Shown: in pieces, positions 6,774 to 56,608 of the stretch
Layout of the letters: each line of letters opens with the position of its first letter
Numbering within the stretch: the first letter of the stretch is position 1
Assembly: GCA_054600435.1 (NCBI GenBank)
Contig: BAAIJX010000041.1
Location: forward strand, 1 to 64,000
DNA: 64,000 bases
Reading direction: 5' to 3'
Origin: Neophaeotheca triangularis
Lineage: Eukaryota
Made by a program: the position numbers and the translations under genes
The notes under the pieces: model-generated
Seen by the model: the letters and a program-made list of their open reading frames with translations, nothing else
The model's database searches: none
Told to the model about the DNA's origin: nothing

Positions 6774-7818
6774 ATGAAATTCGCCCTCGCCCTCGTCAGT
6801 CTGACCGCCCTCGTCGGCGCCGACGACACCTCATGCCCACTGAATTCTACCTCTACACGGAGCTACGATAGGACTACCACGTCACGCTCCACGTTCTGGG
6901 TTGACGCCGTGACACCTCTACCGAGCACGACAATAACACTCGCCAACTTCGAAACTACTGGGACCGTCACAAGTACTGTCCCTGGCGTCACCACTTTCTT
7001 CGTCTGCGAGACGACCACTACTGAGTAAGTGCCGTCCTAACCCACGTTCGGAGACGACTTGACGTTAACCGCCTCGGCACAGGTTCGTGGACCATGTCCC
7101 GACAGCATACACTGGCAACTTCTCTTCGTCGTCCCTTCGTGCCTCGACTTCCTGCGCTCCGCAGACGACTGTGTTCGACGAGTACCTGGCTACGGAGACT
7201 GTGACGCCTACCTTCACCCGTGACGAGTATACCGTCACCGAGTACTATACCACACCTTACGAGGCCACCTACGAAGTCACATCTGGCTTGAGTACGACGA
7301 CAACACAAGGAAACAGGGGCTGCACTCATACCGTGACCTCCGCTACTGCGACAGCCGCCACCTCCACTCAAGACCTCAAGTGCGCCCCGTCAAACCTCAT
7401 TGGAACTGACGGAAAGGCCGGCGAGCCTGGCAGAGCCTCTGTCGCCGATGGCATCGCATCGTACGGTTCCGGAGCAAGCACGCCCGAAGGTTTCCAAGAC
7501 CGTGCTGGTGCTCACAAAGATGCCTCGGCCTGCTGCCAGGCGTGCCAGGATGACCCCAGTTGCAAGGGCTCTCTGTTCGCTGGTTTCACAAATAACTACC
7601 CAACTTGGAGGCCACCATTCTGTCAACATTGGCTCAAGGATTCCCACGATGATGCGTCCGGCACTTGTGGCATTGCTTTCACTATCTTCCCTGGTGACCA
7701 AGCCTGGGGTCAGACCGGCTGCGGTGTCGTCGCCGAGAATGTATATGCTCCAGGCCCGTGCAGCGAGGGCATGAGCCCCCGGCAATGTCAGCGAAGTGCT
7801 GGTAGAGAAATCCGCTAA
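6774..7818 (+). CDS. Secreted Thr-rich, Cys-rich protein with an Apple/PAN-like C-terminal domain (2 exons)
   Basis: Signal peptide MKFALALVSLTALVGA; intron GTAAGT at 7025 to CAG at 7082; Thr-rich stalk followed by ASACCQACQDDPSCKGSLF...FC...C. Confidence 0.75.
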
Positions 7819-49088: not shown

Positions 49089-52070
49089 ATGTCTAATAAA
49101 CCCTACTCGCCCAAGCAGGCCCATTTCTCCCGCGAAGGCTTCCAGCCCATAGCCAGCGACATGTCGCGCCACGACGCAACCATTGACATCCCGCTCGAGC
49201 AAGTCCCGTCCAATGGCGGAGGCCTCCGACACGAAGACAGCAGCGCCCCCCTCAGACCCACCACCGACGAGACAGCAAACGATACCCCACCGCAAGAAGG
49301 AGGGAAAGGTGGCTTTACCCGTGGACATCGCAAGAGATACTCCGCCCCGGGGAGACCGAACCATGGCAGGCCCAAGATTGGTTACGATGGCGAGGAAAAC
49401 ACTGTACATACCATGGGAAGGATCTATGACAAGATCAAGCACTTCTCCATCATCACGCGCTACTTCCTGTATGTGTGGCCGCTGGCGCTGATGATCGCGG
49501 TGCCCATCATCGTAGGAGCAACTGCGGCCAAAAATGCGAGGATAGGCGGGGTGCGGATTGTGTGGTTCTTCACCTGGGTCGAGGTTGTCTGGTTGAGCTT
49601 GTGGGGCTCGAAGATTGTCGCGCATTTCTTGCCGAAGCTGTTTCAGATGATTGTCGGTGTCGTCAGCTCCGGGGTGCGCAAATACAGTTTGGTGCTCAAA
49701 TCGCTGGAGATACCGCTTTCGCTGGTCGGCTGGGCCGTCACTTCGTTGGCGACTTTTATGCCCTTGATGACGCTGAACCCGAGCAAGCGAGCCGCTGGCA
49801 ACACCGACAGCGAGGAGTGGATGAGGATTGTGCAGAAAGTTCTGGGCGCTTTCGTCGTGGCCTCTCTTATTCTCTTGGGCGAGAAGTTCATCATCCAGCT
49901 CATCAGCATCAACTACCATCGCAAGCAGTTTGCTTCGCGCATCAAGGATTCGAAACGGAATGTCTACCTTTTGGGACAGCTCTACGATGCTTCGCGGAAC
50001 ATGTTCCCCGCGTATTGCAATGAGTTTGCTGAGGAGGACTACATCATTTCTGATCAGCTCAACCTATCCCTGGCCCTCGGCAGCAAAGGCGCCAAAAGCC
50101 ACGCTCGTTCGGGTACCGCCACGCCCGGTCGGATGCTGCTGGACGTACAACGATACGGCGACAAGATCACGAGCGTTTTTGGCAACGTCGCGGCCGAGGT
50201 GACGGGAAGGCAGGTCTTCAATCCAAACAGCAGCCACTCTGTGGTGATAGAAGCACTGGAGAAGAAACGGAGCGCCGAGGCTTTGGCTAAGCGGATCTGG
50301 ATGTCGTTTGTCTCCGAGGGAAAGGAGGAGCTACTTTTGGATGATGTCGTGGACGTGCTGGGTTCAGAGCGGAGGGAACTGGCCGAAGAGTGCTTCTGGA
50401 CTCTCGACACGGATGGCAATGGCGACGTTTCGCTGGACGAGATGATCTTGACTGTTGCCGAAATCAAACGCGAGCGCAAAGCAATCTCCACGAGTATGCA
50501 CGATGTCGATCAAGCTATCAACGTGCTTGATCGGTTGCTTTGCGTTGTGGCGTTCGTCGCTGTCATCTTCGTCTTTGTCGCCTTTCTCAACGCCAACTTC
50601 ACGACTACCCTGGCGACTACTGGTACGGCACTGCTGTCGCTCTCTTTCGTCTTCAGCGCTACCGCTCAGGAAGTTCTAGGCAGTTGCATCTTCCTCTTCG
50701 TCAAGCATCCATTCGACATAGGCGATCGGGTAGACATTGGCACCAACCAATTCACAGTCGACCACATCAGCCTTCTCTACACCGTCTTCCGCCGTGTTTC
50801 CGGCACGGGCGTCGGCCGCTCAGTCCAAATTCCCAATCTCATCCTCAACAGCCAATGGGTCGAGAACGTCACGCGCTCCAAAGCAATGGTCGAGCAACTG
50901 ACCATCGACGTCGATTTTGCGACAACTTTTGACGACATTCAAATTCTCAAACGCGAGCTCCTCAACTTTGTAACCGACAAGGACAACGCCCGCGACTTCC
51001 AGCCGAGCCTTGAAGTCGAGGTCCTTGGTACTTCTGACATGAGCAAGCTCAGCCTGCAAGTCGAAATCAAGCACAAATCAAACTGGGCCAACGAATCCGT
51101 CCGAGCGTCCCGGCGTTCCAAGTTCATGTGCGCGCTCGTCGCAGCCCTCAAAGCCGTACCCATTGCTCCTCCGGGCGGAGCCGCCGACGCCGCTGGCACG
51201 GCCGCGAACCCCAACTACTCCGTCACAATTTCCGACGCCGAAGCGCAAGAGAACATGACCAAATCCGCCACCGACAAGGAAAAAGCTCGCCTTATCCCCA
51301 CCAAAAAAGACGACGAGGATGACGCCCCCGGCAGCGACGGTCTCAGCCCCCACCAGGGCAAAGTCATCGACGACCTCACAACACGCGCCGACCCGGGTGC
51401 GGATCCCGCTAGAGACAAAGCCTGGACATCCTCCCGCGAAGGCGACGACAGCAGCACTCTCGGCCCGGACCGCGCGAGCCTCGACCGCCAGGACCTAGAA
51501 GACGTGCGTGGCATTTTACGCCGGCAGAGCACGCTGGGCAAGCGCCGTCCGGGCGATCGTTTACGGTATAGGTTGCCAAACATCCCATCGATAGCCGAGC
51601 CCGCGGACGGGAGCGGAGGCAGCAACGGCGGCGCTCCAGAGGCTTTCGCGGACTACGCGCATTTCCGCCGCAGCAGCCAAGTCTCGCAGCGCTCGCAGTC
51701 ACGGGGCGGCTCTAACAATTACGGCCTCCGTAGCCCGAGTAACGCTAGCAATCGCGTCCCGCCGTATGCCTCGCCTTACCTTAGCGCCGCTGGGGGTCAG
51801 GGACATGGACAAGCGGTGGAGATGACGCAAGTGCCGCCCGCTGCGACGACGACGCCTACGGGGAGGAATAGCTGGAACAATCCTTATCGCCAGCCGAGTG
51901 TGCATAGTGGGTTGAGTTTGCAGCGGAGTCGGGGGGAGAGCGTGAGCTATCAACAGAGCGGGGGGAGGCCGGCGGGGGCGAGTTTCGAGGAGGGGGATGA
52001 GGAGGACGGGAGTGGAGATGGCAGGGGTAACGGGGGCAGGGGGGATTATCGGTCGTATTCGGGAGTTTAG
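49089..52070 (+). CDS. MscS-like mechanosensitive channel with EF-hand (Msy1/Msy2-type)
   Basis: Several TM segments, EF-hand DTDGNGDVSLDEM, FLFVKHPFDIGDRV, ISLLYTVF, IPNLILN..VENVTRS. Confidence 0.93.
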   Translation: MSNKPYSPKQAHFSREGFQPIASDMSRHDATIDIPLEQVPSNGGGLRHEDSSAPLRPTTDETANDTPPQEGGKGGFTRGHRKRYSAPGRPNHGRPKIGYDGEENTVHTMGRIYDKIKHFSIITRYFLYVWPLALMIAVPIIVGATAAKNARIGGVRIVWFFTWVEVVWLSLWGSKIVAHFLPKLFQMIVGVVSSGVRKYSLVLKSLEIPLSLVGWAVTSLATFMPLMTLNPSKRAAGNTDSEEWMRIVQKVLGAFVVASLILLGEKFIIQLISINYHRKQFASRIKDSKRNVYLLGQLYDASRNMFPAYCNEFAEEDYIISDQLNLSLALGSKGAKSHARSGTATPGRMLLDVQRYGDKITSVFGNVAAEVTGRQVFNPNSSHSVVIEALEKKRSAEALAKRIWMSFVSEGKEELLLDDVVDVLGSERRELAEECFWTLDTDGNGDVSLDEMILTVAEIKRERKAISTSMHDVDQAINVLDRLLCVVAFVAVIFVFVAFLNANFTTTLATTGTALLSLSFVFSATAQEVLGSCIFLFVKHPFDIGDRVDIGTNQFTVDHISLLYTVFRRVSGTGVGRSVQIPNLILNSQWVENVTRSKAMVEQLTIDVDFATTFDDIQILKRELLNFVTDKDNARDFQPSLEVEVLGTSDMSKLSLQVEIKHKSNWANESVRASRRSKFMCALVAALKAVPIAPPGGAADAAGTAANPNYSVTISDAEAQENMTKSATDKEKARLIPTKKDDEDDAPGSDGLSPHQGKVIDDLTTRADPGADPARDKAWTSSREGDDSSTLGPDRASLDRQDLEDVRGILRRQSTLGKRRPGDRLRYRLPNIPSIAEPADGSGGSNGGAPEAFADYAHFRRSSQVSQRSQSRGGSNNYGLRSPSNASNRVPPYASPYLSAAGGQGHGQAVEMTQVPPAATTTPTGRNSWNNPYRQPSVHSGLSLQRSRGESVSYQQSGGRPAGASFEEGDEEDGSGDGRGNGGRGDYRSYSGV

Positions 52071-52774
52071 GAAGCGGGAGGGCTGTGGTCTGAGATGATT
52101 TCGGGTCGATCGCTTTGAGAGGCGAGGGTTTGTTTTGGGCCCGTGGGGGTTTGGTGGTTACGAGCTATGCTTGTATGCTTGCAAACGATGGTTTACGCTT
52201 GCTTTGATAGAATGGGACGAGACTAGCTTAGACTAGACTACGTTACGGAAAAGCGACGGAGTTGCTGGTTTCTTCTGAATAAAGAAAAAGAGGGCATCGC
52301 GGCGGGCTAGGAGGGTATGGGCGCTTAAAAGGGGCAGTGGGAGGAGGGAATGCTGACAGTATAGATTGTATTAATGTCTTGTACTATTGGGAATTAGAGC
52401 AAATTTCCACGGCTTTCGCGTTCGCTTTCGAGGGTTATTGTTACTTGCTGCTTGAGTTCCGCTTTGGGGGATGCTGGCTTGGGTGTTGTTTTGAGTGTAC
52501 AGTAGATGTGGCAGTGGAGGCATCCATACTAACTTATGTACATGTTGTGCCCGGTCACGCTTCATCTTATCTCATCTTATCGAGAGGTAACCCCATCTGC
52601 ATCTTATCACAATCGTCGATGGACGCTTGGGGTGAAGCTACCTCTCTAGCACCTGACCCCCTTTTCTTGGCAGTCGTCTCATTTTCAAACTTTCAAGTTC
52701 TCCAGCTTCGTTCTTTCTGCTTTATCGTCCACCACCAATCAGTCCATCCCACACGCAATAATATCGGAAAGACC

Positions 52775-53470
52775 GACGAATTTTCCATTGACCTTGAAAA
52801 ATTCACAAAGGATTACTAGTTATCGCGCTCACAGGAAAGGTAGGAACCCAACGAACCCTCCCACACGCCCTCGGATTCCCCCATCTCCTTCCACCCACCC
52901 CATTCCCTTTCTCCGCTCCAGAAACCCCCAACCCCCCACCACCATCCCCCTCCCCCCCTTCCCCTCCTCTCGACCCGCCCAGACAACAGCCCCACGCAAC
53001 CAAAAAGCGTAGCTGTAACTGTCCGCTCGCCACAAAAGCACAACATGAGCCTACGGTACCCCGTCGGGGCGAAGACGAAACAGACCCCGCAGGTCTTGTC
53101 TCAATTTTGGGACGGCTTGTGGGGGAGATCACGATTAAGCCGGAGCGCTTTCTTGAGCCCTGTGTTGATGAGGCATGGGGTGGGTGGAGGGTGCTTGACT
53201 TTGTTGGTCGGACATTTATTTCGTTGCTTTGGTTGCTTTGTTTTGCGATGCTTTGTTTTGCGACTAGGTTTGGGTTTGGGGTAGAGGGTGAAGGTGAGGG
53301 TGAGGGTGAGGCAGAGGGGGGGAAGTGGGGTTGGTGGTTGTTGGTGGGTGGGTTGGTAAGGTGGATTGAGGAGGTGGATTGGGGGGTGTGTAGCTGTCTT
53401 GGAGCCTAGATCTGTGAGGTATGAACGTTTTGTCTGATAGCGTTTGCCGCGCTGGATGCGGGAATCTCAG
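52775..53470 (+). ncRNA. Candidate large structured non-coding RNA (unidentified)
   Basis: At least nine correctly nested complementary segments between a C-rich 5' arm and a G/U-rich 3' arm, many with G-U pairs that favour the + strand; no credible ORF. Confidence 0.5.
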
Positions 53471-53642
53471 GCTTCTTTAGTTTGTCGTATGCTCTTCATT
53501 GCTATCGTGCCTAAACCTTCGAATCCAAACGCCATGGCACCTTAGACTCTTTCCGACTCCAACGCCTGTCCATGCATAGATCAGCCATAGCCTCGTTCCA
53601 TTTCGTCGGCAGCATCTCCCACTCTCACAAAAGCCTCTGCCA

Positions 53643-54290
53643 CTACATAACCACGCAACACGAATTCTGCTTCTTGGCCTGCGTGTAAAACATCTTACTC
53701 TGCGCACTCAACCCATCACTCTTAGCAACCAAATTATCAATCTTCTCCCCTCTCTCCAACACACTCTCAATAGTCTTATGCAACACAATCTTGGTCTCAT
53801 CCAACTCCCTCTGCACCTTGAGAATCCCATCCGCCTGCGCGGGATCCTGATACTTCTCCAAATACCCCTTCAACTCCGGAAACGGCACACCGGCATCGCT
53901 GCTCTCCCAAACCTTCCGCGGGTTCTTGCTCAACCACTCGTCCATGATCTTGCTCAGCAACTGATGCGCCACGAGCGCCGGGTACTCGTGGTCGGAGATT
54001 ATGATGCCGCAGACGCCCTCGCTGCGCCCGTAGGCGTGGAAGGTGTAGGATTGCTCCTCGACGTCTTGGCGCTGGCCGGCGCGCGTGCGTTCGGCCACCG
54101 TGCGGGAGAAGAGAGACATGAATTCGCCCACGCTGGTGCGGGTGAAGCGCGAGTAGGAGGACAGGTCGCGTTCGGCTGTTAGTTCGACTGCCGGTTTGGA
54201 TTCGTTTTTGAAGATCTAGCCATTTTAGTCTGAGGGGACTGGTTTTGGTGGTTTTGGTGCTTTACTTACGCCTATATAGAGGAGCTTCAT
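53643..54290 (-). CDS. YKT6: Longin R-SNARE Ykt6
   Basis: MKLLYIG / ...LSSYSRFTR..VGEFM, YQDPAQAD, QRELDETKIVLHKTIESVLERGEK, C-terminal CCVVM. Confidence 0.97.
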
Positions 54291-54762
54291 GGTTGCGGTT
54301 GTGGGTTGGGTGATCTCAGTGAGGGCTTTGGAAGGGTGGGAGGTCGAGGTTGCTAGGTTTGCTTGTCGGCTGGATGGGTGATTGTTGTTAAGATGTCTGG
54401 AAAGTGTTTTGAAAGGTTTAGTGCAGGCAGCAAAGGTAGAGTAGGGTAATAGGAAGGCTGTCCACGGTACCTCCACTGATAGCTGTATGCGGTCAGCGAT
54501 GGCGAAGGAGGACCAGGACCAGGACCAAGAGCTGCCTCGTGCTTTGTGTGGGGTTTGGCCCGGCAGTTCCCGCTGTCCCATGCATGTGCTTCGATCAAGT
54601 CACCAAGTGAAGGTACAAGCCATACTACCTGGTACCGGCTGTACCTTTGGCTCTGTAGACATAAAAGATTCAACACAGTCTAGGAGTCTTCACTAGAATC
54701 AAGCTGGATCACCACACTACCAACAGCTGTACTAAAACACCACCCTCGAACAGCCCCCCAAA

Positions 54763-55341
54763 ATGGCGCCCATAACAACAGCCTCAAACGACGAAACCCA
54801 CGCCGCCCTCCTCGACACCCTAGACATGCACAAGATCCATAAACCCTTCCGCAACCCCAACTGGAAACCACCACAACGCCGCAACAAGAATCTCAAACAG
54901 ATTCTATCCGAAGCGCAACGCGCCCAACAGGCCAGCGTGCAAAACACGCAACAAAACAGCGGCGCCTCTACTCCAGCCGCAGCCACATTAGCAGACGGCA
55001 GCACCACCCCAGCTCTGAGCACGAATCCAGCACAAGCGAGTCAGGATCTTAGTCGAAGGGTATTGGAGAAGAATGCCAAGCAGGGCGGCGGCAGCACCTT
55101 GACCTTGGGAGGTGGTGGCATGACTGTGCCCAGTGTCACGTACACTAGCATTGCTGCCGCGCCGTCGTTGAAGCCTAAGAAGAAGTATTGCGATATCACC
55201 GGATTGCCGGCGAAGTACAAGGACCCTAAGACGGGCTTGTACTATTGCAATGCGGAGGTTTATGCGGTGATTAAGGGATTGGGGACGGAGCAGGTGCAGG
55301 AGTATCTTGGGGCCAGAGGCGCGAATACTGTACTCAAGTGA
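54763..55341 (+). CDS. IES6: INO80 complex subunit Ies6 (YL1_C domain)
   Basis: KPFRNPNW...RRNKNLKQIL; TYTSIAAAPSLKPKKKYCDITGLPAKYKDPKTGLYY...YLGARGANTVLK. Confidence 0.93.
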   Translation: MAPITTASNDETHAALLDTLDMHKIHKPFRNPNWKPPQRRNKNLKQILSEAQRAQQASVQNTQQNSGASTPAAATLADGSTTPALSTNPAQASQDLSRRVLEKNAKQGGGSTLTLGGGGMTVPSVTYTSIAAAPSLKPKKKYCDITGLPAKYKDPKTGLYYCNAEVYAVIKGLGTEQVQEYLGARGANTVLK

Positions 55342-55702
55342 AAGGAGGGGGTATCAGGCGTTCAAGAATATGTCGACGTCGCTCTATTGCGGCGGGTTTG
55401 GACTTCATGGCTGGCGCGACGCTTCACGCTGGAGCCTCGCATACCAGGGGCACCTATTCGAGCAACACCGGCTATCAACGGCAACTCCAGCTCGGCAGCT
55501 TTTCCCGCATCTGGAGAAAGAGGGTCAAACCCCACCAAACCAGTGTGGCAGTGACGCAGTGTCATCAAGTACACATACTGTATATACAGGAAGACGATCG
55601 TGCATCTCTACGCCATACTGTCTGGAAGGAGCCTGCACCAGACACCACCACTAGACCAAACAAGACACAACCACTCTTCCTACCAAGGCAAAACAAAAAA
55701 TC

Positions 55703-56386
55703 ATGGCCCCCGCCACCAAAGTCCACGCCCACCACCTCGCCCCGACGCCCCTAATCCCCAACTCCCCACTCCCCCTCCTGCACTATCCCTCCGCTCTCCC
55801 CAATCCAACGGCGGCACTCGCCCGCCAACTCTACACCAAAAACCACTGGCAAACCGCCTGGATCTTCCGCTACGGCCCAACACAAACCTCGCACTACCAC
55901 AGCACCAGCCACGAATGCATGACCGTGCTAAGCGGAACCGCAACCATCCGTTTCGGCGTCGCAGACCTCTCCCCCGACATGGAAGCCAATACCCACGGCA
56001 CACGCGGACAAGACTACGAAGCGGGCGGTGTGGAAATCGCCGCCAAGGCCGGCGATGTCTTCCTGATCCCCGCGGGCGTTAGCCATAAAACCTACGACAC
56101 CTCGCCGCCCGCCTCTTTCGCGCTGGTGTCTCCCGGTGATGGCCACGGGCTGGGTTGTACTAGTGATGCCGAGGCGGATGAGAAGTTGGGAGCGGTGAGG
56201 TTGGAGGGGTTTTGTATGCTGGGTTCGTACCCGGAGGGCGCGGATTGGGACTCTTGTAACGGTGGAGAGCATCGGGGGAGGGAGGGGGTGGTTTGGGATG
56301 TGCCGAGGCCGGAGTTGGATCCGGTCTTGGGGGAGAGTAGGGATGGGATTAATGGGTTGTGGGCGTATGGATTAGCGAAGATTTAG
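55703..56386 (+). CDS. Cupin-domain protein (YjlB-like)
   Basis: IPNSPLPLLHY, HYHSTSHECM.VLSG, GDVFLIPAGVSH, GSYP, DPVLG. Confidence 0.88.
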   Translation: MAPATKVHAHHLAPTPLIPNSPLPLLHYPSALPNPTAALARQLYTKNHWQTAWIFRYGPTQTSHYHSTSHECMTVLSGTATIRFGVADLSPDMEANTHGTRGQDYEAGGVEIAAKAGDVFLIPAGVSHKTYDTSPPASFALVSPGDGHGLGCTSDAEADEKLGAVRLEGFCMLGSYPEGADWDSCNGGEHRGREGVVWDVPRPELDPVLGESRDGINGLWAYGLAKI

Positions 56387-56608
56387 GCGGGAGATAGCTG
56401 GTAGGCTGGCTGATGTTGACGGAGGATTTTGCCTTTTGGGGAGAGTTGGTCGGAATGCCATGTGTATGTACAATTCAGTCATCTACAAGCTACCCAACAA
56501 TCTAACCCAGCCATTTCGCTGTTTGAAGAAAAAAACATCCCCCCCCCCCCCAAAACGCCCATCCATTCGTCTGCAATCCCTCCTGCCCTTCCCCCCCAAG
56601 CCCGAAAA

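Follow-up and report, generated by a model that had tools for sequence, protein, structure and literature searches.

Two convergent genes on a contig of the fungus Neophaeotheca triangularis, an MscS-like channel gene on the + strand and a YKT6-like gene on the − strand, enclose an interval that can be drawn as a single very large RNA hairpin, and we asked what this interval encodes. The DNA analyzed, hereafter the window, is a 64,000-nt stretch (assembly GCA_054600435.1, contig BAAIJX010000041.1, positions 1 to 64,000 of the forward strand), and a first-pass annotation made from its letters had described positions 52775–53470 as a nested stem-loop of about 650 nt and a candidate novel structured non-coding RNA (ncRNA) of the + strand. 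Our analysis retains a structured, conserved and non-coding RNA, and revises both its extent and its novelty: the conserved element spans only ~52981–53217 (~235 nt) and very probably belongs to a known class, the box H/ACA small nucleolar RNAs (snoRNAs). Its 3' hairpin would, on a somewhat less secure prediction, guide the modification of one uridine in 18S ribosomal RNA (rRNA).

A conserved core with covarying base pairs

To place the interval in a comparative setting, we used a YKT6 exon as query, which gave 395 candidate stretches, 117 confirmed relatives and, among the latter, 80 fungal metagenome loci carrying YKT6. A blastn search with the central part of the interval (the core) matched 9 of these 80 loci (L012, L032, L065, L066, L068, L069, L071, L072 and L079) with E values from 4e-17 to 9e-7. 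Because L065, L066 and L068 are identical to one another, as are L071 and L072, the nine loci represent six distinct sequences, and counts out of seven for conservation, structure and motifs refer throughout to the window plus these six homologues. Conservation is blockwise, with the recurrent blocks GCTGYAACTG, CGGTA, GATCAC.ATTAAGCCGGAGC, CTTGAGC, GTGG.T.GA and GCTTGACT, and stops ~3 nt past an invariant ACA at 53212–53214.

The RNAalifold consensus of the seven sequences consists of two domains with 41 pairs, 13 of which show changes on both sides. In this consensus 93.4% of alignment cells are paired, as against 35–42% when the 3' partners are slid by 1–3 columns, and the same slid controls contain 1–5 double-change pairs as opposed to 13; the covariation score was matched by none of 500 shuffles. 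With only seven related sequences, these values provide good but not overwhelming covariation support for a two-hairpin fold. A covariance model built from the alignment (R1) matched the window at 52981–53222 with 139.6 bits; when run over the window and the 80 loci, it returned full-length matches only in its training sequences (139–198 bits, one strand), together with weak partial hits in L026 (E 0.3) and L029 (E 0.75).

Architecture of a probable box H/ACA snoRNA

The conserved RNA and its parts are as follows.

~52981–53217, + strand: gene of a very probable box H/ACA snoRNA, ~235 nt; ends approximate, the 5' end taken from the covariance-model hit and the 3' end from the ACA box plus 3 nt
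52989–53070, + strand: 5' hairpin domain (HP1); RNAalifold helices 1–3, with both-sided changes in 5 of 18 pairs
53073–53078, + strand: H box AGACGA (pattern ANANNA); hinge hexamer in seven of seven homologues
53085–53124, + strand: extra hinge hairpin, lineage-specific; folds with 17 bp and is a gap in the six other distinct homologues
53127–53209, + strand: 3' hairpin domain (HP2) with the predicted pseudouridylation pocket; RNAalifold helices 4–6
53134–53142, + strand: 5' guide strand of the HP2 pocket, ATTAAGCCG, within which TTAAGCCG (53135–53142) is invariant in seven of seven
53197–53201, + strand: 3' guide strand of the HP2 pocket, GACTT, within which GACT is invariant in seven of seven
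53212–53214, + strand: ACA box, invariant in seven of seven

The assignment to the H/ACA class, which we consider very likely correct on sequence grounds, is based on the ANANNA hinge box, the invariant ACA, the two hairpin domains and the spacing of the pocket; the hairpin-hinge-hairpin-tail layout is present in the seven-sequence consensus as a whole. The hinge hexamers read AGACGA, AGAGCA (four times), ATATCA and AGACAA, so that only the three A positions are fixed, and they lie 1–2 nt past the HP1 closing stem in all seven sequences; a motif this short is weak evidence by itself. HP1 is branched: besides its closing stem, which in the window's own copy was identified by eye, it has a side hairpin and the helix ACTGT/ACGGT (53018–53022 / 53053–53057). 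Between the H box and HP2, the window carries a block of 35–41 nt relative to the other homologues, which contains the extra hairpin.

HP2 has both-sided changes in 8 of 23 pairs and 95–96% of cells paired. Eight of the nine bases in its 5' guide strand are invariant, the first (53134) being A in six sequences and T in L032. In H/ACA guides, 14–16 nt separate the top of the pseudouridylation pocket from the H or ACA box that follows it. The distance from the HP2 pocket to the ACA box is 15 nt in four homologues and 16 nt in three, whereas the corresponding HP1 distance to the H box ranges from 15 to 23 nt and satisfies the rule in just two of seven. The ACA box is followed by ~3 conserved nucleotides, where the alignment would place the 3' end of the RNA; a contig of run X4, described below, stops at 53210.

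A predicted target in 18S rRNA

We retrieved 18S sequences through the pattern of the NS5 primer, which identified at least 41 eukaryotic 18S contigs in bacterial and archaeal assemblies, and scored every U in these partial sequences with a simple bipartite score. The stretch downstream of NS5 is near-uniform: 4 of the 41 contigs differ in the 21 bases around the target described here, and 5 stop short of it. The top site for HP2 is an 18S uridine that follows the first base of NS5 by 43 nt (ggagcc[U]gCGGCTTAATT in a fungal-like partial 18S), and the same uridine is the best site for all seven homologues. Together with G53133, the 5' guide can pair with 18S over as many as 10 contiguous positions just 3' of the target (8–10 across the homologues), while the 3' guide forms a G-C pair, an A.C mismatch, a C-G and a U-A pair, with 2–5 pairs after the mismatch; in the window and three other homologues it continues with G-U pairs into the lower stem. 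Shuffled guides reached the window's target score in 10 of 1000 trials on contig L107 and in 5 of 1000 on L097. The second-best HP2 site, 35 nt before NS5 with 7 + 3 pairs, scores 9 in three homologues that have a different 3' guide, and was rejected. On balance, we favor the prediction that HP2 guides pseudouridylation of this one uridine beside helix 31.

No HP1 site was common to the homologues in the rRNA sequences scanned (partial small-subunit (SSU) rRNA, internal transcribed spacer (ITS), 5.8S and protist rDNA). A search with the LR0R primer pattern revealed no large-subunit (LSU) sequence in three assemblies with fungal-like 18S contigs; the one LSU start that it located is on the protist-like rDNA contig L122, which was used in the HP1 scan only. 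Since the homologues have no HP1 target in common and the spacing between HP1 and the H box ranges over 15–23 nt, the RNA is probably a single-guide snoRNA, as judged from these sequences.

The predicted site can be related to human 18S rRNA, for which Table 1 of Taoka et al. (2018; PMC6182160) lists pseudouridines at 1232 (98%), 1238 and 1244 and an m1acp3-pseudouridine at 1248; pseudouridine 1232 is also visible by cryogenic electron microscopy in the data presented in PMC10164566. Setting position 1248 at the NS5 start + 59 is the sole local register that places 1232, 1238, 1244 and 1248 all on U, and by this register the predicted target uridine appears to match human pseudouridine 1232. 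We take its yeast equivalent to be U1175, where Saccharomyces cerevisiae is not known to have a pseudouridine.

The source of the 18S contigs deserves comment. At least 41 contigs (L081–L121) from assemblies labelled as bacterial or archaeal contain plant-, fungus-, animal- or protist-like 18S rDNA, which we therefore attribute to eukaryotic contamination; only one record carries a contamination flag in its title. Viral contigs contained no NS5 match. In L103, labelled Nostoc, the 18S sequence diverges after ...CCAGGAGT, ~37 nt past the NS5 start and 7 nt upstream of the target, from all other copies; the unrelated sequence that follows may reflect an assembly joint or a group I intron.

Folding energy of the apparent 650-nt hairpin

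The pairings that had been quoted for the giant stem-loop are real, as all 11 segment pairs are Watson-Crick or G-U complementary at the coordinates given, and the RNAfold minimum free energy (MFE) structure of 52775–53470 on the + strand is indeed one giant nested hairpin (−283.6 kcal/mol). Twenty dinucleotide shuffles of the + strand gave −261.8 ± 9.0 kcal/mol (z −2.43, none as good), as opposed to z −0.20 and 10 of 20 as good for the − strand. Because the 5' arm is C-rich (GC skew −0.64) and the 3' arm G-rich (+0.77), shuffling was also done within segments, keeping the C-rich, core and G-rich parts in place, which yielded z −2.46 for the + strand (2 of 60 as good) and z +0.36 for the − strand (35 of 60). 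When only the flanks were shuffled around the native core, the native flanks folded 14.6 kcal/mol better than the shuffles (z −2.29, 3 of 100 as good). Among 151 tiles, each of 696 nt and taken from all over the window, two fold as well as 52775–53470 or better. Three other tiles of this size fold to within 5 kcal/mol of the hairpin, or better.

The strongest strand-specific folding signal sits in the core alone. The + strand of 52991–53239 has z −3.27 (0 of 200 shuffles as good; − strand z −0.30), and the cut 53040–53200 has z −3.45 (1 of 200; − strand z +0.24); two remaining core cuts tested on the + strand gave z −1.8 (6 of 200). The shuffle check proposed for the whole hairpin thus returns an excess on the + strand that is present but modest, and approximately none on the − strand.

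Homologues also distinguish between the two folds that the core could adopt. The inner long-range pairs of the hairpin (TGTCCG/CGGACA, AAGCAC/GTGCTT and GCCT/AGGC), which the first-pass annotation had read as part of the RNA's fold, are paired in 70.4% of cells versus 93.4% for the two-hairpin H/ACA fold. They would pair the 5' domain with both the guide region and the ACA box, burying the latter, and we do not retain them.

The C-rich and G/T-rich flanks

The two arms of the hairpin coincide with tracts of skewed composition.

52860–52980, + strand: C-rich 5' flank (5' arm of the hairpin), outside the conserved RNA
53218–53400, + strand: G/T-rich 3' flank (3' arm of the hairpin), outside the conserved RNA

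In the 150 nt upstream of the core, C makes up 56% in the window versus 18–31% in the six homologues, and in the 150 nt downstream the window has 47% G and 35% T versus 19–25% G in the homologues. The flanks of the six distinct homologues neither align to those of the window nor share their C-rich or G-rich composition; the arms are therefore lineage-specific and lie outside the conserved RNA. Among the substitutions listed for close relatives, 12 fall in 52775–53470, of which 4 hit unpaired positions, 5 convert an MFE pair to G-U and 3 break one, and no both-sided compensated change occurs in the arm pairs; 49 more differences lie on the whole 2,501-base stretch, beyond these 12. Insertions and deletions in the C runs of close relatives are uncompensated, and run X3 has 1-nt deletions there. 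The expectation that the arms would be conserved and covary in orthologous loci was thus contradicted, with flanks that cannot be aligned in six homologues and no double compensatory change. We conclude that the complementarity of the arms is mostly compositional and gives the impression of a 650-nt hairpin.

The pyrimidine-rich, promoter-like tract that had been described does exist and lies just upstream of the conserved RNA; the C-rich tract is probably a promoter or leader, and the G/T-rich tract is probably a terminator region. The 3' flank contains GGTGAG repeats and two tandem copies of TGCTTTGTTTTGCGA. The latter form a perfect tandem duplication of a 15-mer just past the snoRNA (53234–53263), and run X2 contains one extra copy with a loose end at 53234, which suggests that the copy number of TGCTTTGTTTTGCGA varies between strains.

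Contigs from sequencing runs, strain variation and coding potential

Four sequencing runs (X2, X3, X4 and X7) were aligned to the region, all as contigs, which reveal neither strand nor RNA ends. Run X4, from another organism and assigned to RNA only by guess, contains a complete 226-nt contig at 52985–53210 with a depth of 24 and 3 differences. X4 has no contigs on the coding parts of the MscS-like and YKT6-like genes and X7 has none on the core; neither absence was counted as evidence. Run X2, which bears the source's organism label, differs from the window across 52973–53263 by 2 substitutions and a 5-nt insertion (TCTCA after 53098), and its neighboring intergenic pieces are 3–8% different. 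Within the extra hairpin, X2 has the TCTCA insertion, a duplication, and an A>G change at 53091 that turns an A-U pair into G-U, and X3 and X4 share an A>T change at 53104, in the loop.

The earlier judgment that the interval lacks a credible open reading frame held. Three long open frames over the element gave no Pfam hits, and we regard the RNA as non-coding because the 5-nt insertion in the related strain shifts every frame and the insertions and deletions among homologues are not multiples of three. Two further classes were rejected: for a C/D-box snoRNA, TGATGA at 53165 is not conserved and a D box in register is absent; for telomerase RNA, the interval is too short, and inspection of both strands by eye found no 1.5-copy CCCTAA template.

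Relation to known RNA families

A search of the six homologue loci against Rfam 15 returned no hits at the gathering threshold, nor did positions 7150–7360 of L065 produce any Rfam hit. At E ≤ 10, 52775–53470 with its surroundings (51800–54300) and the 251-nt core gave only chance hits, at ≤16 bits compared with cut-offs of 40–80; for the 251-nt core these numbered four, all far below gathering. The first-pass annotation had stated that motifs of U1, U2, U3, RNase P/MRP, SRP and snR30 were lacking, which agrees with the absence of an Rfam match to these families, to telomerase RNA or to yeast and Schizosaccharomyces pombe snoRNAs; its proposal of a novel RNA stands less well, the probable class being H/ACA. 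The RNA resembles box H/ACA guides in its ANANNA hinge, an ACA 3 nt from the presumptive end, a pocket spacing of 15–16 nt and bipartite pairing around a U-N dinucleotide, and differs in matching no H/ACA family in Rfam, in its branched 5' domain and in the extra hinge hairpin of the window's lineage. In yeast, snR35, snR36 and snR85 guide 18S positions 1191, 1187 and 1181. The predicted target is a uridine other than these three, which lie 6, 12 and 16 nt downstream of it.

A closer relative may be HACA_53 (snoStrip; Schizosaccharomyces pombe AJ632016), described by Canzler, Stadler and Schor (2018; PMC5824354) as an orphan snoRNA present in Taphrinomycotina and Pezizomycotina with a conserved predicted hairpin-2 target at alignment position 18S-1302. 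The sole nearby calibration in that paper equates alignment position 18S-1400 with yeast 1271, so 18S-1302 would correspond to approximately yeast 1173–1204, a range that includes our predicted site (~1175 in the numbering we assume). The likeness thus comprises an overlapping hairpin-2 target range and the taxonomic distribution, and is one of description, not of sequence; membership of the snoRNA in the HACA_53 family is, in our estimate, slightly short of an even chance. If it holds, human pseudouridine 1232 would retrospectively back a 2018 fungal prediction for a site then thought to be unmodified. By register, the RNA is also like the unnamed guide of human 18S pseudouridine 1232, a comparison made by site only.

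Gao, Jones and Rivas (2021) reported covariation-supported intergenic H/ACA-like RNAs of 92–177 nt in Pezizomycotina (PMC8216456); the targets stated in that work (SSU-203, SSU-743/744 and LSU sites) differ from ours, and its intergenic structures without a stated target may overlap with the RNA described here. The conserved 12-mer of the core is absent from the 20 cloned Neurospora crassa H/ACA snoRNAs in supplement 2 of PMC2780460, among which Nc ACA19 has a 9-mer in common in a different context. Nor was the 12-mer found in print in the literature searched.

Weighing the alternatives

Several observations count against the snoRNA assignment or its predicted target. No Rfam family, those of snoRNAs included, matches the core or its homologues; the covariation rests on seven distinct, related sequences; and HP1 is unusual in being branched, in its variable distance to the H box and in having no common target. 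The second position of the 3' guide helix is an invariant A.C mismatch, and the target scan covered partial SSU, ITS, 5.8S and 3 kb of protist rDNA, so that a better target may lie elsewhere, for example in fungal LSU rRNA or small nuclear RNAs (snRNAs). Support at the RNA level comes from contigs, and the library type of X4 is a guess. Finally, the equivalence to human 1232 and yeast 1175 depends partly on the presumed position of the m1acp3-pseudouridine and its neighboring sites in the helix-31 loop stretch.

The mismatch and the scope of the scan leave room for an H/ACA-class RNA with some other role, be it an LSU rRNA, snRNA or mRNA target or a non-modifying chaperone of helix 31 in pre-40S assembly. 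The invariant block GATCACGATTAAGCCGGAGC, which exceeds the length that a guide needs, and the fact that U1175 is not known to be modified in S. cerevisiae point the same way. However, the pocket-to-ACA distance is 15–16 nt in all seven homologues, all of which select the same uridine, and the equivalent human position is 98% pseudouridylated according to Table 1 of PMC6182160; we therefore regard such a role as unlikely. A small protein-coding gene has a negligible probability. There is a 79-codon frame (53045–53284) whose ATG at 53045 is in fair context, and an exon could be sought in a 203-codon open frame, one of two stop-free frames of ~200 codons on the two strands, but these open frames result from the C/G-rich composition, have no Pfam hits, are all shifted by the TCTCA insertion, and coincide with homologue insertions and deletions, the 35–41-nt block included, that are not multiples of three. 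Conservation moreover tracks base-pairing rather than codons.

The remaining alternatives concern the flanks. If the locus encoded one structured ~650-nt ncRNA, the C-rich and G-rich arms would form a functional long stem closing a multi-hairpin head, in agreement with the genuine pairings, the single-hairpin MFE, the strand-specific z of −2.4, the excess stability of the native flanks and the five substitutions that preserve a pair as G-U. Yet the arms are missing in all six other distinct homologues, which have flanks of ordinary composition; no arm pair has changed on both sides, three of the eight listed substitutions that hit a pair break it, and the C-run length changes are uncompensated; two background tiles fold equally well; the outer 3' end overlaps the 3' untranslated region (UTR) of YKT6 on the opposite strand; and the inner pairs would sequester the ACA box while forming in only 70% of cells. 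Comparison largely refutes this reading, which we consider highly improbable. A related proposal holds that the flanks zip into a stem in a longer precursor, providing an entry site for RNase III-type or other processing or for termination; in yeast, RNase III (Rnt1) processes pre-snoRNAs. The complementarity of the flanks is modestly above that expected from composition and includes a perfect 9-bp match between 52996–53004 and 53228–53236, the latter 11 nt past the probable 3' end. The significance of the flank signal is weak (3 of 100), though, GC-skewed tracts are common across the window, and because homologues lack such flanks, a stem of this kind is not a general requirement of the snoRNA. 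We judge the precursor stem improbable, and hardly more probable the narrower suggestion that the C-rich and G/T-rich tracts (~120–180 nt each) and the 9-bp clamp serve this lineage in particular as a device for processing the precursor or for termination; at present, neither role of the flanks is supported in the window's lineage.

We thus favor an independently transcribed + strand gene that would produce a ~235-nt H/ACA RNA, with transcription and RNA ends as deduced above. From 5' to 3', the RNA would comprise the 5' hairpin domain, the H box, the extra hairpin, the 3' hairpin domain with its pocket and the ACA box, and it would presumably join a particle of Cbf5, Nop10, Gar1 and Nhp2. The pocket strands ATTAAGCCG and GACTT would base-pair with the 18S rRNA sequences that flank the uridine in ...GGAGCC-U-G-CGGCUUAAU..., just 5' of helix 31, and the paired pocket would present this uridine for isomerization to pseudouridine. 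What had appeared to be an exotic 650-nt RNA would then become an annotatable gene, an H/ACA snoRNA missing from Rfam, with a single 18S uridine as a testable target. The locus also illustrates that fungal intergenic DNA can imitate giant RNA hairpins where low-complexity tracts rich in C and in G adjoin each other, and that whole-sequence shuffles control incompletely for the effects of such tracts.

Genomic setting

The window looks like part of a filamentous-fungal chromosome. The genes that border the interval are listed below.

ends at 52070, + strand: MscS-like channel gene, 993 codons (PF00924)
last exon ends at 53646, domains in 53646–54215, − strand: YKT6-like longin SNARE gene (Longin and Synaptobrevin)
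53438–53645, − strand: probable 3' UTR of the YKT6-like gene, from an X7 contig; overlaps the outermost pairs of the 650-nt hairpin

In the poly(A) metatranscriptome run X7, one contig spans 53438–53802, and Illumina adapter letters abut 53438, so that the YKT6 3' UTR probably reaches into the outermost 3' part of the hairpin.

The position of the snoRNA relative to YKT6 differs between loci. The window has it on the strand opposite to YKT6, 430 nt past the stop of that gene. Five distinct snoRNA sequences from seven loci (L012, L032, L065/066/068, L069 and L079) share the strand of the YKT6 match and lie 1.4–1.7 kb downstream of it, a distance into which a further small gene would fit, and in L071/072 the snoRNA is 1.35 kb upstream of YKT6, again on the same strand. 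Long loci with a closer YKT6 (L004 and L008; 82% identity) have no snoRNA copy within 5 kb. The linkage of snoRNA and YKT6 is thus long-lived across diverse fungi, although order and strand change.

Upstream of the interval, complete short contigs from the runs of two studies map to 52214–52399 (X4, 164 nt, 52218–52381; X7, 186 nt, 52214–52399). Their starts lie within 4 nt of each other, and a DNA contig of X2 continues across that point; these contigs probably represent the end part of the MscS-like gene's 3' UTR, with an AATAAA at 52280. Contig coverage is lacking at 52070–52213, between the MscS-like stop and the short contigs. Across 50000–56500, the GC skew changes over intervals of a few hundred bases from about −0.6 to +0.8 and back, C-rich and G-rich tracts being common, and the spacer upstream of the C-rich tract contains three copies of TCATCTTATC / GCATCTTATC at 52562–52611.

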